Shown here: positions 7,594 to 11,224 of the stretch, piece by piece
Layout of the letters: each line of letters opens with the position of its first letter
Numbering within the stretch: position 1 is the stretch's first letter
Source: a virus
DNA: 11,224 bases
Reading direction: 5' to 3' (one strand)
UHGV virus genome: UHGV-1660473
Position numbers and translations under genes: made by a program
Notes under the pieces: generated by a model
Seen by the model: only the letters and a program-made list of their open reading frames with translations
What the model was told of the DNA's origin: nothing
Databases searched by the model: none

Positions 7594-7927
7594 GAGAACC
7601 TCCCGCTACAGTTGCGCCCATGTCATTAACCATGCTTTGCCATATCTCACGCCCGACGTCAGTCAATCCGTCCTTAGTGACGCAACGCTCAAGAAGCTCG
7701 ATCCCCACGGTTTCCCACTGCGGGTAGAACACTTTCATGGCTGCCAGTGTGTAGCTATCGATCAGGCTGCGAACGCCTTTTACTCCATTGACGATTTCCA
7801 CACGTACGGCCTCGCCGTCCGCATCAACCATGAAATAGTCCCCGCCGCTGGTGGAGGTAATGTGGTTATACAGTGCCGACGCATACTTATTTGCCAGCGC
7901 ATTCAGTCGGAAATTTTTAGTAATCAT
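7586..7927 (-). CDS. Hypothetical protein, 113 aa
   Basis: Complete ORF in the track. SD-like GAGGATGGAG precedes the ATG at 7927. Confidence 0.65.
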   Translation of the reverse strand: MITKNFRLNALANKYASALYNHITSTSGGDYFMVDADGEAVRVEIVNGVKGVRSLIDSYTLAAMKVFYPQWETVGIELLERCVTKDGLTDVGREIWQSMVNDMGATVAGGSHA

Positions 7928-7937
7928 GGCTCCATCC

Positions 7938-8540
7938 TCAGTGCGTCACTGGTTCCGCTGGCATGCCGTTTTCATTCAGTTCAGCTATAAAGCTGTTGTG
8001 AAGTTCAGCAAGCGTTTCACGCCCAAATGGAGTCAGTGCTCCTTGTTCCACATCCATCATGGCTCTGTAGAAAATGATGGCGCGTTCTGTGCCAGACTCG
8101 ATGCCAAAACGTTCTATCATCGCGCCCTCAATGTTGTTTGCCATAGCGAGGCGCTCTGCTACTGGATACAGCGGCATGGCGACGATGCCGTTGGAATAAA
8201 TAGCCACTTCGGAAGGATTGCCAGTATCATCAATGATGCTGACAGTGCCGTTTTCCTCTCTCATTTCCAGCATGAATACTGTTGCGATCAGCCATCTCCA
8301 CATAATGACGTTATGCTGTGATGTGTAATCGAAATATCCCTGGTTGCCGCCATCGGCAATAGCGAGATGTATTGACATACCTTCATCTGGTTTATCGTCA
8401 TAATCCCCGGCATCCAGACGATTTACGGCATCAATATATGAGACGGCCTCAACGCGTTCTGTCATGCCATCGTTGCTGCGGTACATGATGTTTACGCCGT
8501 CAGGCGTTGCTTCTGCATGGAAAGTTAAGAAATTATTCAT
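7938..8540 (-). CDS. Hypothetical protein, ~200 aa (start re-assigned to an internal ATG of the track ORF 7938..8645)
   Basis: The ATG at 8540 (MNNFLTFHAEA...) is preceded by GAGG and overlaps the upstream gene's stop by 8 nt. The longer N-terminal extension in the track would overlap the 8533..8754 gene in another frame. Confidence 0.6.
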   Translation of the reverse strand: MNNFLTFHAEATPDGVNIMYRSNDGMTERVEAVSYIDAVNRLDAGDYDDKPDEGMSIHLAIADGGNQGYFDYTSQHNVIMWRWLIATVFMLEMREENGTVSIIDDTGNPSEVAIYSNGIVAMPLYPVAERLAMANNIEGAMIERFGIESGTERAIIFYRAMMDVEQGALTPFGRETLAELHNSFIAELNENGMPAEPVTH

Positions 8541-8754
8541 GTTTCGCCTCGCCTGAATGATTCTGTAACTCATATTTGCCCAACAATTCGTCCGCTTCCT
8601 GAATAGCTTCTGGTACGCCATTGAGCAGTGACATAACCGCGCCAATCATTAACTTGTCTCTGTTGCTGGGGCTGGCCCCTTCAAGCCAGAACCCTAAAAC
8701 AGTCTGAACCTGTTCGATGCGACATTGCGCTTCAATGAGCTGGATGTTGGTCAT
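8533..8754 (-). CDS. Hypothetical small protein, 73 aa
   Basis: Complete ORF in the track. SD-like GGAGAG upstream; ATGA overlap with the upstream gene. Confidence 0.55.
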   Translation of the reverse strand: MTNIQLIEAQCRIEQVQTVLGFWLEGASPSNRDKLMIGAVMSLLNGVPEAIQEADELLGKYELQNHSGEAKHE

Positions 8755-9014
8755 TTCGCACTCTCCACATCGATTAAACCGATATCTATCAGGGAGGTAA
8801 CTTTTTGTAGCCAGCTATTGATTACTGTCGCCTGTTCCCCTCCCACCGAGGGAACAATCTCATTCATCACATGAACCAGACCTGTGCGCGCTCTGGTAAG
8901 CCGTTCAGTCGCGCAATCTGCGGGAGTGAATGTGTCTGGATATGGCTCTTCACGCCCCAGCAATGATTCAATTTCCAGCTCACACGGATGACGATAAATT
9001 AAGTTGATATTCAT
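8751..9014 (-). CDS. Hypothetical small protein, 87 aa
   Basis: Complete ORF in the track. SD-like GGGGGTG upstream; ATGA start/stop overlaps on both sides. Confidence 0.55.
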   Translation of the reverse strand: MNINLIYRHPCELEIESLLGREEPYPDTFTPADCATERLTRARTGLVHVMNEIVPSVGGEQATVINSWLQKVTSLIDIGLIDVESAK

Positions 9015-9205
9015 TTTTCACCCCCAAGAATTACCAGCTCGGCACGGGCATCGTTAACCAAAGATGAGCACGCTTTAATCGCATCCACGACATCAGTAGC
9101 GTCCATTTCTTCAGCCGAAAGACTGACAGCAACCAGGACAGCCGCTGCTTGCTCGATTAATTGAAGTGCGGACGTAAGTCGAGGGGCATTAATTGAGTTA
9201 TTCAT
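9011..9205 (-). CDS. Hypothetical small protein, ~64 aa (internal ATG of track ORF 9011..9262)
   Basis: ATG at 9205 (MNNSINAPRL...) is preceded by a G-rich SD-like run and overlaps the upstream stop by 8 nt. Confidence 0.5.
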   Translation of the reverse strand: MNNSINAPRLTSALQLIEQAAAVLVAVSLSAEEMDATDVVDAIKACSSLVNDARAELVILGGEK

Positions 9206-9416
9206 TGGTTGCCCCCGTTTTTCCTGGCATTTCGCCACCTTCCAGCAGGAAATGAACGTCACGAACGGCGAGATCCAATATCGCGAGTAACGCCTTCAGT
9301 CTTTCGTCTCGTGAGGGAGAGTTGCTCACCAGAATGTCGTTAATCACTTCTGTCAGTGTGATGATCTGGCTTGTGCGTTCGAGGGGATCCATATGCACAT
9401 CGTAGGTTTTAATCAT
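9198..9416 (-). CDS. Hypothetical small protein, 72 aa (C-terminal segment of the long track ORF 9198..10235)
   Basis: ATG at about 9416 (MIKTYDVHMDPLER...) is preceded by GGAGG at ~6 nt. Upstream of this point the same frame turns into low-complexity, non-protein-like sequence. Confidence 0.5.
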   Translation of the reverse strand: MIKTYDVHMDPLERTSQIITLTEVINDILVSNSPSRDERLKALLAILDLAVRDVHFLLEGGEMPGKTGATNE

Positions 9417-9603
9417 GTGCCACCTCCATGCGGATACGACCAGCAAAAAAGCAGATGTGATCGCGCACCAGAGAACGGCGAGCATCGCGTTCAGACTCGG
9501 CAGCAATATGATGAATTTTGGCGGTAATTGTCGGGCAATCGCGGCGAACTGCGGCGATAATCCAGATAAATTGCGGTTTTTGGGTAGGGGTAGTAGCCAG
9601 CAT
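9409..9603 (-). CDS. Hypothetical small protein, ~64 aa; first gene of the small-gene chain
   Basis: ATG at 9603 (MLATTPTQKPQF...) is preceded by GGAGG at ~8 nt. Enterobacterial-type codon usage. Its stop overlaps the next start by 8 nt. Confidence 0.45.
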   Translation of the reverse strand: MLATTPTQKPQFIWIIAAVRRDCPTITAKIHHIAAESERDARRSLVRDHICFFAGRIRMEVAHD

Positions 9604-9632
9604 GTGGCAGCCTCCATTCGATAGCATGTAAC

Positions 9633-9668
9633 GCTACCACCGGAAACGCCAATTTCGCTGGTGGTAGC
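9633..9668. promoter_or_regulatory. Inverted repeat GCTACCACC-N16-GGTGGTAGC in the leader of the small-gene operon
   Basis: 9-bp perfect arms read directly, about 30 nt upstream of the ATG at 9603. No U-tract follows on either strand, so it is not a terminator; possibly an operator or RNA structure. Confidence 0.3.
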
Positions 9669-9924
9669 CCAGACAGGGTTGGCGTAACCGGCTCGAATGG
9701 ATACCGGCGCTTCCGCCGCCACTTCCCGCCCCTTTCCAGAAAGCGGGGTAACATCCTGCATGGCCGCAAAGAAATTGATGTCCTCCTCGCCTGTTTCATT
9801 CCCCGTTTTTTTCGGAGTGGAGGAGGCAGCATTCTTGCCGGCTATTTCAGGAGTAGGATTGTTTTTTTTCGTTTTTGACAACGAACGATCGGTCTCCCAG
9901 AGAGCCTGTTTGCCGAGTACAGGG

Positions 9925-10914
9925 TTATTCAGGGAGGTAACGGAAGGCCGTTTTTCGCGTTTTGCGTTTGCCGGAGCGCCTTGCGAGTTCCTCTTGAACT
10001 CTGCCGAAGGTGGACGAGTCGATAATGGCAGGGTGGCTGTTTTCCACATAGTATTTCGGGCGTTCGCCGTTGTTGACTCTGACCTTTTTGCTGATACAGT
10101 CGGTGATGTAGGTCTTATTGATGATGGCATCGCCTTTGTATCTCTCGTTGGAGAGAATGGACTGTATCGTGGAAAACTGCCATTCTGCTTTTCCCGTCGG
10201 GCTTTTGATGCCCTTTTCTTCAAGTAGTTTGGCAATTCCCTTTAAGCTGTCGCCTGCGAGGAAGCGGTCATATATAAAGCGGATCGTTTCGGCTTCTTCG
10301 GGGGCGATTTCGGGTTGTCCGTCCTCGCCCTTGCGATAGCCGAGGAAGTTCTTGTATCTGAATACTACCTTGCCTTCACGGGCGGCCTGCGCCTTGCCCC
10401 ATTTAATGTTGGCGCTGATATTTTCCGATTCGCTTTGGGCGATGCTGCCGTAGATGGTGATGTAAAATTCCGCACCGGGCTGATTGCTGTGGATGCCCTG
10501 CTCCTCAAAGTATACATCCACGCCCAGCTCATTGAGTAGTCGGACATACTTCAAGCAGTCCACCGTGTTCCGCGCGAACCGGGCAATGGATTTCGTGATG
10601 ATCATGTCGATTTTCCCTTGCTTGCATCGGCGGATCATGCGGTTGAATTCATCTCGGTTTTTCACGCTTGTGCCGGAGATGCCCTTGTCGGCGTAGATAC
10701 CTTCAAGCGTCCATCCGTTTTCGGAATTGATGCGTTCGGTATAGTGTTCCACCTGATTTTCATAACTGTTGAGCTGTTCCTCCTGCTTAGTGGAAACGCG
10801 GCAGTATGCCGCCACCCGCAGGACTCGGTAATGGGTTTTCACGCTCTCTCTGACCGATATTGTCGGTTCGATTATCCGCACCACTCTCGGCGGGGATACA
10901 ACAGTCTGTTCCAT
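9925..10914 (-). CDS. Serine recombinase (resolvase-type catalytic domain + recombinase domain), 329 aa, apparently lacking the C-terminal zinc-ribbon/coiled-coil domain of large serine integrases
   Basis: Complete ORF in the track with an AAGGAG SD 7 nt upstream. Contains the catalytic motif RVAAYCRVSTKQEEQ, IARFARN, and a recombinase-domain end HPAIIDSSTFGRVQEELARR, then stops 13 codons later. Codon usage (frequent AGA, CGA, CGG, CTC) is unlike the rest of the window. Confidence 0.8.
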   Translation of the reverse strand: MEQTVVSPPRVVRIIEPTISVRESVKTHYRVLRVAAYCRVSTKQEEQLNSYENQVEHYTERINSENGWTLEGIYADKGISGTSVKNRDEFNRMIRRCKQGKIDMIITKSIARFARNTVDCLKYVRLLNELGVDVYFEEQGIHSNQPGAEFYITIYGSIAQSESENISANIKWGKAQAAREGKVVFRYKNFLGYRKGEDGQPEIAPEEAETIRFIYDRFLAGDSLKGIAKLLEEKGIKSPTGKAEWQFSTIQSILSNERYKGDAIINKTYITDCISKKVRVNNGERPKYYVENSHPAIIDSSTFGRVQEELARRSGKRKTRKTAFRYLPE

Positions 10915-11224
10915 TGTCTGACTCCTTTCGTATGATCTGTCCGTTCAGCAGTATGATGTCTGCCGTTTTGTCGGTGTACAGGCGTATTTCGCTGACCGTG
11001 CGGTTCAGCCGCTCGGCGATGTCTGCCGTACTGTCAAGTTCGGCCTTCAGCCTTTGTACGGCGTAGCACCCGTTGCCGAGTTCTTTATATTTCCGAGCGA
11101 GGCATTTCGTCATTTTGCTTCGTAATACGGTTTTGTCTATTTCCGCCATGTCAAGCATTCGGCTGATCTCGTTGTTCAGGCGTATTACCTCGGCACTCGG
11201 TTCGTAGGGCGTTTCGGCAGGCAG
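10787..11224 (-). CDS. Hypothetical protein, partial (5' end beyond window); overlaps the recombinase start by ~128 nt
   Basis: Minus-strand frame is open from the window edge: ...LPAETPYEPSAEVIRLNNEISRMLDMAEIDKTVLRSKMTKCLARKYKELGNGCYAVQRLKAELDSTADIAERLNRTVSEIRLYTDKTADIILLNGQ..., followed by a low-complexity tail inside the recombinase ORF. Uses ATA, CGA and AGG codons like the recombinase. Confidence 0.4.
   Translation of the reverse strand: MPAETPYEPSAEVIRLNNEISRMLDMAEIDKTVLRSKMTKCLARKYKELGNGCYAVQRLKAELDSTADIAERLNRTVSEIRLYTDKTADIILLNGQIIRKESDNGTDCCIPAESGADNRTDNIGQRERENPLPSPAGGGILPRFH

Follow-up and report, generated by a model that had tools for sequence, protein, structure and literature searches.

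The window analyzed here, a stretch of 11,224 nucleotides, raises the question of why DNA that reads as an enterobacterial prophage should end, on its right side, in a truncated serine recombinase with a different codon usage. An initial annotation had offered three answers: the remnant of a foreign integrative element, an acquisition across phyla, or an assembly chimera. The window is the entire contig ena:ERZ505461:NODE_2412_length_11224_cov_3.177008, which has a SPAdes-style name and a low mean coverage of 3.18. Sequence matches assign its DNA to three phyla. The contig runs from an Escherichia coli prophage through a 21-mer (9695-9715), 286 nt of Bilophila and a second 21-mer (9960-9980) into a recombinase locus (Table 1). 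The sides of the breakpoints thus match different genomes, at 99.5% for E. coli, 100% for Bilophila wadsworthia and 97.6% for a Clostridia-type large serine recombinase (LSR) locus, and the native continuation of every piece differs from that in the contig. We consider it highly probable (about 95%) that the window is a chimera made in a de Bruijn-graph assembly, in which DNA of three unrelated gut bacteria was glued at shared 21-mers, and not a biological feature.

Table 1. Coordinates of the segments, junctions and gene fragments of the window
Feature	Position (nt)	Strand	Remark
Left tip, no source match	1-49		E. coli matches start at 50
Piece A, E. coli chromosomal prophage segment	50-9715	-	99.5% DNA identity
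'ash family protein', C-terminal 172 codons of 355	9198-9715	-	E. coli homology ends mid-gene
Junction 1, 21-mer GAATGGATACCGGCGCTTCCG	9695-9715		Native to the E. coli prophage and the Bilophila Smr gene
Piece B, internal Smr-domain gene fragment of Bilophila wadsworthia	9695-9980	-	100% identity, 286 nt
ORF tail TRKTAFRYLPE and stop	9925-9959	-	Bilophila Smr DNA, wrong frame
Junction 2, minus-strand GGCGCTCCGGCAAACGCAAAA	9960-9980		Common to the Smr gene and the Clostridia recombinase gene
Piece C part 1, large serine recombinase codons 1-318 of 545	9960-10914	-	98% aa identity to P0001
Piece C part 2, 3' end of the gene upstream of the recombinase	10787-11224	-	DNA match to L025/L026/L027

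The change in composition was quantified on both sides of the junction region. Synonymous codon usage in the right-hand ORFs, namely, the recombinase and the partial ORF upstream of it (462 codons), was compared with that of the 12 genes on the left (2533 codons), yielding a summed chi-square of 154.5 on 41 degrees of freedom (p = 4.5e-15; chi2/df 3.77). In the control, in which each left-hand gene was compared with the remaining left-hand genes, chi2/df was just 0.72 to 1.49. The five codons that had been named as characteristic of the right end (AGA, ATA, CGA, CGG, and CTC) were indeed enriched there, accounting together for 8.4% of codons versus 3.7% on the left (Fisher p = 3e-5). Tetranucleotide composition told the same story. 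The Jensen-Shannon divergence of 9962-11224 from the left part lay 4.7 SD (symmetrised) and 5.0 SD (strand-specific) above a baseline of left-hand windows of equal size, and the best single split point was at ~9800. Codon usage and tetranucleotide composition both shift sharply near 9.7-9.8 kb. GC content is nearly flat (0.49 versus 0.52), and most of the shift is carried by A/T skew and third-position choice. The switch described in the initial annotation is therefore real and well beyond chance, and it is explained by the boundary between genomes of different phyla.

The sizeable ORFs of the window all lie on the minus strand. Pfam searches of the 329-aa ORF at 9925-10914 (minus strand) detected PF00239 (residues 34 to 182, E = 7.5e-36) and PF07508 (residues 205 to 313, E = 9.1e-27) and did not detect the zinc ribbon PF13408. 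The RVS motif that includes the presumed catalytic serine can be recognized within AAYCRVSTKQE. The window copy therefore shares PF00239 and PF07508 with large serine recombinases, the integrases of Firmicutes phages and ICEs, but lacks PF13408 and everything downstream of it. Its best homolog, P0001, is a protein of 545 aa with the zinc ribbon at residues 336 to 396; amino acid identity is 98% over residues 1 to 318, and there is no similarity beyond. The nearest homologs, of 545 aa, come from gut metagenomes, and among the 120 best matches nearly all close homologs have 545 to 548 aa and contain PF13408. By its record, an 86%-identical homolog comes from metagenome-assembled genomes (MAGs) of Ruminococcaceae/Oscillospiraceae and an 80%-identical one from a Clostridia bacterium. 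Both the truncation ahead of the zinc ribbon, a domain that the 545-aa homologs have, and the Firmicutes origin of the recombinase had been correctly anticipated.

The DNA comparison locates the point of divergence. The contig encoding P0001 (L002) matches the window at 97.6% over 9962-11024, whereas to the left of 9962 the two sequences are entirely different, and the close native LSR homologs all read ISRKAKTEQGKY in place of the tail of the window ORF. On the other side of the recombinase, the partial ORF is homologous to the gene of a 322-aa PF07508 protein at its 3' end. In native contigs, this is the middle gene of recombinase clusters that comprise two or three genes, where it precedes and overlaps the LSR gene; the window shows the same overlap. 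The DNA match of the upstream gene to L025, L026, and L027 extends to position 11223 of the window, and the PF07508 protein is encoded at 2088-3056 of L026. Codons 1 to 318 are thus the bona fide N-terminal half of a large serine recombinase of the ordinary Clostridia kind. PF13408 is missing because the contig leaves the LSR gene for another genome, and not through decay.

Two other accounts of the short ORF were considered. One is a frameshifted but complete recombinase, which we rejected, as no frame downstream of 9960 resembles the C-terminal half of an LSR. The other is a family of serine recombinases that are naturally short (~330 aa) and devoid of the zinc ribbon, an outcome that the initial annotation had named as contradicting its own view. 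One cluster of 339-aa homologs (P0076, 81% identity) does occur among the 120 best matches. Nevertheless, the nearest homologs have 545 aa, nearly all close ones have 545 to 548 aa with PF13408, and the last 11 codons of the window ORF are out-of-frame Smr-gene DNA. DNA homology ends abruptly at 9960-9962, where Bilophila sequence takes its place; this break and replacement refute the short-family reading, to which we give next to no credence.

The left part of the window is a nearly identical copy of a chromosomal prophage segment. E. coli EC17GD31 and others are collinear with 50-9715 at 99.5% identity, the range across many chromosomes being 99.3 to 99.8%, and identity to E. coli over 8500-9715 is 99.8%. 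At least 80% of the prophage segment is covered in 66 of the 5,426 complete E. coli genomes. The segment encodes P22-type injection proteins, DUF2824, a TOPRIM/DUF927 primase, small early genes, and an Icd-like ORF. It is collinear at 99.5% with a P22-like E. coli prophage that has a TOPRIM/DUF927 primase early region and adjoins yicC in strain JP538. All E. coli matches end at 9715, inside a 355-aa ORF annotated by PGAP as 'ash family protein'. In E. coli, the sequence continues with the rest of the ash ORF, DUF4222, an AntA/AntB antirepressor, an HTH regulator, and a tyrosine integrase. The window, in contrast to that prophage, lacks everything from the remainder of the ash ORF through the tyrosine integrase, and DUF4222, the antirepressor, the HTH regulator, and the integrase were all absent from it.

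The sequence that follows position 9715 in the window (9716-9961) was present in none of the 5,426 complete E. coli genomes, and 9716-11224 had no match among plasmids, so that neither search revealed a genuine element inserted in the E. coli prophage. In megablast searches against phages, the right end gave just a 75-nt match of the Rha/antirepressor-like type at 9636-9710, and the whole window gave short unrelated matches only, including matches in the DUF2824 region. Exact scans of IMG/VR for the junction, the middle piece, the AAA-variant LSR word described below, and the left tip were empty.

The middle piece was identified by searching for exact copies of a 26-nt word that crosses 9715/9716. 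Besides 20 contigs from metagenomes, this retrieved the genome sequence of Bilophila wadsworthia ATCC 49260, a member of the Desulfovibrionaceae in the phylum Thermodesulfobacteriota. The 286 nt are 100% identical to positions 1536-1821 of the ATCC 49260 locus (L023), within an ORF of 333 aa (1302..2303) with an Smr domain (PF01713). We also considered 9716-9961 as a divergent E. coli variant of the ash gene. This was discarded, as upstream of the join the two resemble each other neither in DNA nor in protein and the match to Bilophila is 100%. The flanks of the Bilophila-type loci were then scored wherever enough flank was available, which was the case for 21 loci on the left and 11 on the right. 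On the left, 16 flanks were identical or near-identical to the reference Bilophila flank, 4 belonged to more divergent variants, and E. coli-type sequence was found in a single contig, L014. On the right, LSR-type sequence was found in 0 of the 11.

Both joins coincide with short words common to the two adjoining genomes. At junction 1, E. coli and Bilophila overlap by exactly 21 nt, with flanking bases that differ on either side; L029 and L023 have one 21-mer and no 22-mer in common. At junction 2, the overlap is 19 nt with L002, the closest full-length LSR homolog, and exactly 21 nt, again with no common 22-mer, with the LSR variant L028, which has a synonymous AAA lysine codon; the 21-nt figure at this junction depends on L028, a sequence of another metagenome (ERZ893899), and not on the LSR allele of the sample itself. 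All close LSR homologs encode Lys-Ile at this place, with the lysine codon AAA in L028 versus AAG. The joins are 245 nt apart, and both cut genes in the middle of an ORF. For a random junction between unrelated sequences, the probability of an overlap of at least 19 nt is ~4^-19, and the overlaps are therefore not a coincidence. We estimate, for genomes of 5 Mb and 4.4 Mb with uniform bases, that about ten 21-mers are common to the two by chance, so that shared words that can serve as glue are always available to an assembler. The junction had been placed at about 9600-9930 in the initial annotation. This was approximately the right place, and the first join (9695-9715) lies inside that range. 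The assumption of a single join did not hold, as there is a second one at 9960-9980, just outside the range; the double join, the 286-nt Bilophila bridge, and the 21-nt words at both joins were missed.

These features are those expected if a low-coverage assembly of the SPAdes type had glued three genomes of one gut sample at exact common 21-mers, namely, an E. coli prophage, the B. wadsworthia Smr gene, and a tandem-recombinase element from Clostridia of the Oscillospiraceae/Ruminococcaceae type. The smallest default k of SPAdes and metaSPAdes is 21, and SPAdes hands contigs obtained at smaller k to the later k iterations, so that joins made at k = 21 in low-coverage regions can persist. The assembler word would accordingly be k = 21 in this case, for a contig whose name records no k values. 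Gaps in coverage may have broken the true paths, leaving the chimeric path unbranched, and reads across the joins would be absent, the mean coverage of 3.18 being the sole depth figure. The join at codon 318 would then cut the recombinase before its zinc ribbon and append a tail of 11 out-of-frame Bilophila codons.

A second assembly contains one of the two joins. L014 (ERZ1106981 NODE_2654, SPAdes-named, coverage 1.70) has the E. coli sequence of the window over 116 nt, followed by 5.2 kb of native Bilophila DNA. Its join is the 21-mer of junction 1, and past the position equivalent to 9980 it follows Bilophila and not the recombinase. Two different chimeras with one glue word are what graph gluing predicts, and not what a single real recombinant would give.

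The recurrence of junction 1 in two assemblies could also be taken as a sign of a true recombinant, in which an E. coli prophage or another replicon would have gained Bilophila and Clostridia DNA in vivo at microhomologies of ~21 nt. The source organisms apparently share the gut, several of the matching contigs being named human gut metagenome. However, the window and L014 diverge completely after the 286 nt, the recombinant is found in 0 of the 5,426 complete E. coli genomes, and both joins lie mid-ORF and out of frame. Nor would biological recombination be expected to bring three phyla together within 1.5 kb at overlaps exactly as long as an assembler word. In this reading, the right end would be the remnant of a foreign integrative element with a now decayed recombinase, joined by illegitimate recombination at short homologies, yet the DNA shows no decay, and piece B matches native Bilophila DNA at 100%. 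We regard such a recombinant as very improbable. Of the three answers offered at the outset, the integrative-element remnant thus finds no support, with the junction in 0 of 5,426 E. coli genomes and the joins inside ORFs, nor does the cross-phylum acquisition, with none of these genomes continuing past 9715 as the window does. The assembly chimera is the one that the three sources and the exact 21-nt overlaps bear out.

A chimera might instead have arisen in vitro, by template switching or by ligation at microhomologies during library preparation or amplification, and then have been assembled faithfully. Polymerase template switching likewise gives joins at short identical stretches, which those of the window resemble, and every piece copies its native sequence perfectly. 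Yet both overlaps have the size of an assembler word, 21 nt with no common 22-mer (for junction 2, by comparison with L028), and one molecule would not yield ~3x coverage over 11 kb. The different continuation of junction 1 in L014, from another assembly, also fits graph gluing, not a library chimera that formed once. We therefore hold an in vitro origin to be unlikely, though somewhat less so than recombination in vivo, and even jointly the in vitro and in vivo origins retain a small probability.

Gluing by the assembler belongs to the class of inter-genome translocations, which are reported to be the most prevalent type of misassembly in metagenome assemblies of the CAMI benchmark (PMC9661791). 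The window resembles such misassemblies in the near-identity of its foreign sides, the k-sized words at its breakpoints, its low coverage, its SPAdes naming, and the recurrence of a join in a second assembly. It differs from the usual case only in having two joins, with a 286-nt bridge from a third genome.

The case matters for quality control and not for biology. In a public assembly, a contig that looks like a prophage contains 1.5 kb from two other phyla, and this foreign DNA gives rise to a spurious "truncated serine integrase," an equally spurious fusion ORF of 345 aa, and an apparent transfer of genes across phyla. Chimeric contigs of this sort can seed false host assignments, false calls of horizontal gene transfer, and spurious protein clusters. 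The signature of exact 21-mers, together with its recurrence in a second assembly, offers an easy check for further SPAdes contigs of low coverage. If the in vivo reading were true, the window would be a direct snapshot of illegitimate recombination across phyla.

The left tip of the contig may hold a further join. Positions 1-49 are unrelated to the E. coli sequence at that place by direct alignment, the top E. coli matches beginning at 50, and they had no match in phages or IMG/VR. This tip is possibly another chimeric end.

The joins also generate artificial ORFs. One is the 345-aa ORF at 9198-10235, in which the tail of the ash ORF and the Smr fragment are fused to the recombinase gene in an alternative frame; the Smr fragment is in frame with the ash tail because the 21-mer of junction 1 encodes EAPVSI in both. 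In the 329-aa ORF, the last 11 codons and the stop come from the Smr gene in the wrong reading frame, and this chimeric protein is already recorded in a protein collection.

The E. coli/Bilophila 21-mer at which the window is joined was also found to be the point of chimerism in a separate public assembly. Contig L014 (ERZ1106981 NODE_2654_length_5326_cov_1.70) consists of 116 nt of E. coli prophage (positions 1-116) followed by 5.2 kb of Bilophila sequence. That a contig from another assembly is chimeric at the identical 21-mer suggests that this artefact recurs wherever the two organisms co-occur at low depth.

One consequence of the joins is an artificial fusion, the 345-aa ORF, which is composed of the tail of the ORF that PGAP calls 'ash family protein', the Smr fragment in frame with it, and finally part of the recombinase gene read in an alternative frame. 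Such an ORF could be picked up by a gene caller (see the table below).

Features of the window with their coordinates
Feature	Window position	Strand	Remarks
11-nt repeat, 1.9 copies	4363-4383		unit TGTTGGTTCAG
9-nt perfect tandem repeat, 3 copies	4427-4453		unit TGAACCAAC
345-aa ORF	9198-10235	minus	unbroken through both joins
72-aa ORF	9409-9627	minus (window)	within the 355-aa 'ash family protein' ORF, in a different frame; likewise in E. coli loci L001 and L029

The left tip of the window was considered as well. Identity to E. coli prophages is 99.5-100% from position 50 on, starting in an injection gene with a lytic-transglycosylase domain, and positions 1-49 had no match in complete E. 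coli genomes, phage records or IMG/VR contigs. This stretch may be a further tip glued to the contig end, or it may represent a mosaic allele of the injection gene.

In its native context (L026, positions 539-4458, and L025 and L027), the large serine recombinase gene closes a tandem cluster, coming after genes for a 513-aa resolvase and recombinase protein and a 322-aa recombinase-domain protein. PemK toxin and SHOCT genes lie before this cluster, and genes for a short-chain dehydrogenase and an acetyltransferase come after it. The large serine recombinase of L026 and L027 is 485 aa long and carries an internal deletion when compared with the 545-aa form.

The 72-aa ORF may correspond to the 'host cell division inhibitor Icd-like protein' that some RefSeq records give for the 'ash family protein' region. 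Several E. coli RefSeq records label a small hypothetical gene there 'nicotinic acetylcholine receptor subunit beta', evidently an annotation error.

The spacer downstream of the primase gene has a low GC content (about 0.40), and its repeats span positions 4363-4453, with the reverse complement of the 9-nt unit found within the 11-nt repeat. Klebsiella phage phiKp_30 matches a 38-nt stretch of the window (4209-4246) at 97% identity.
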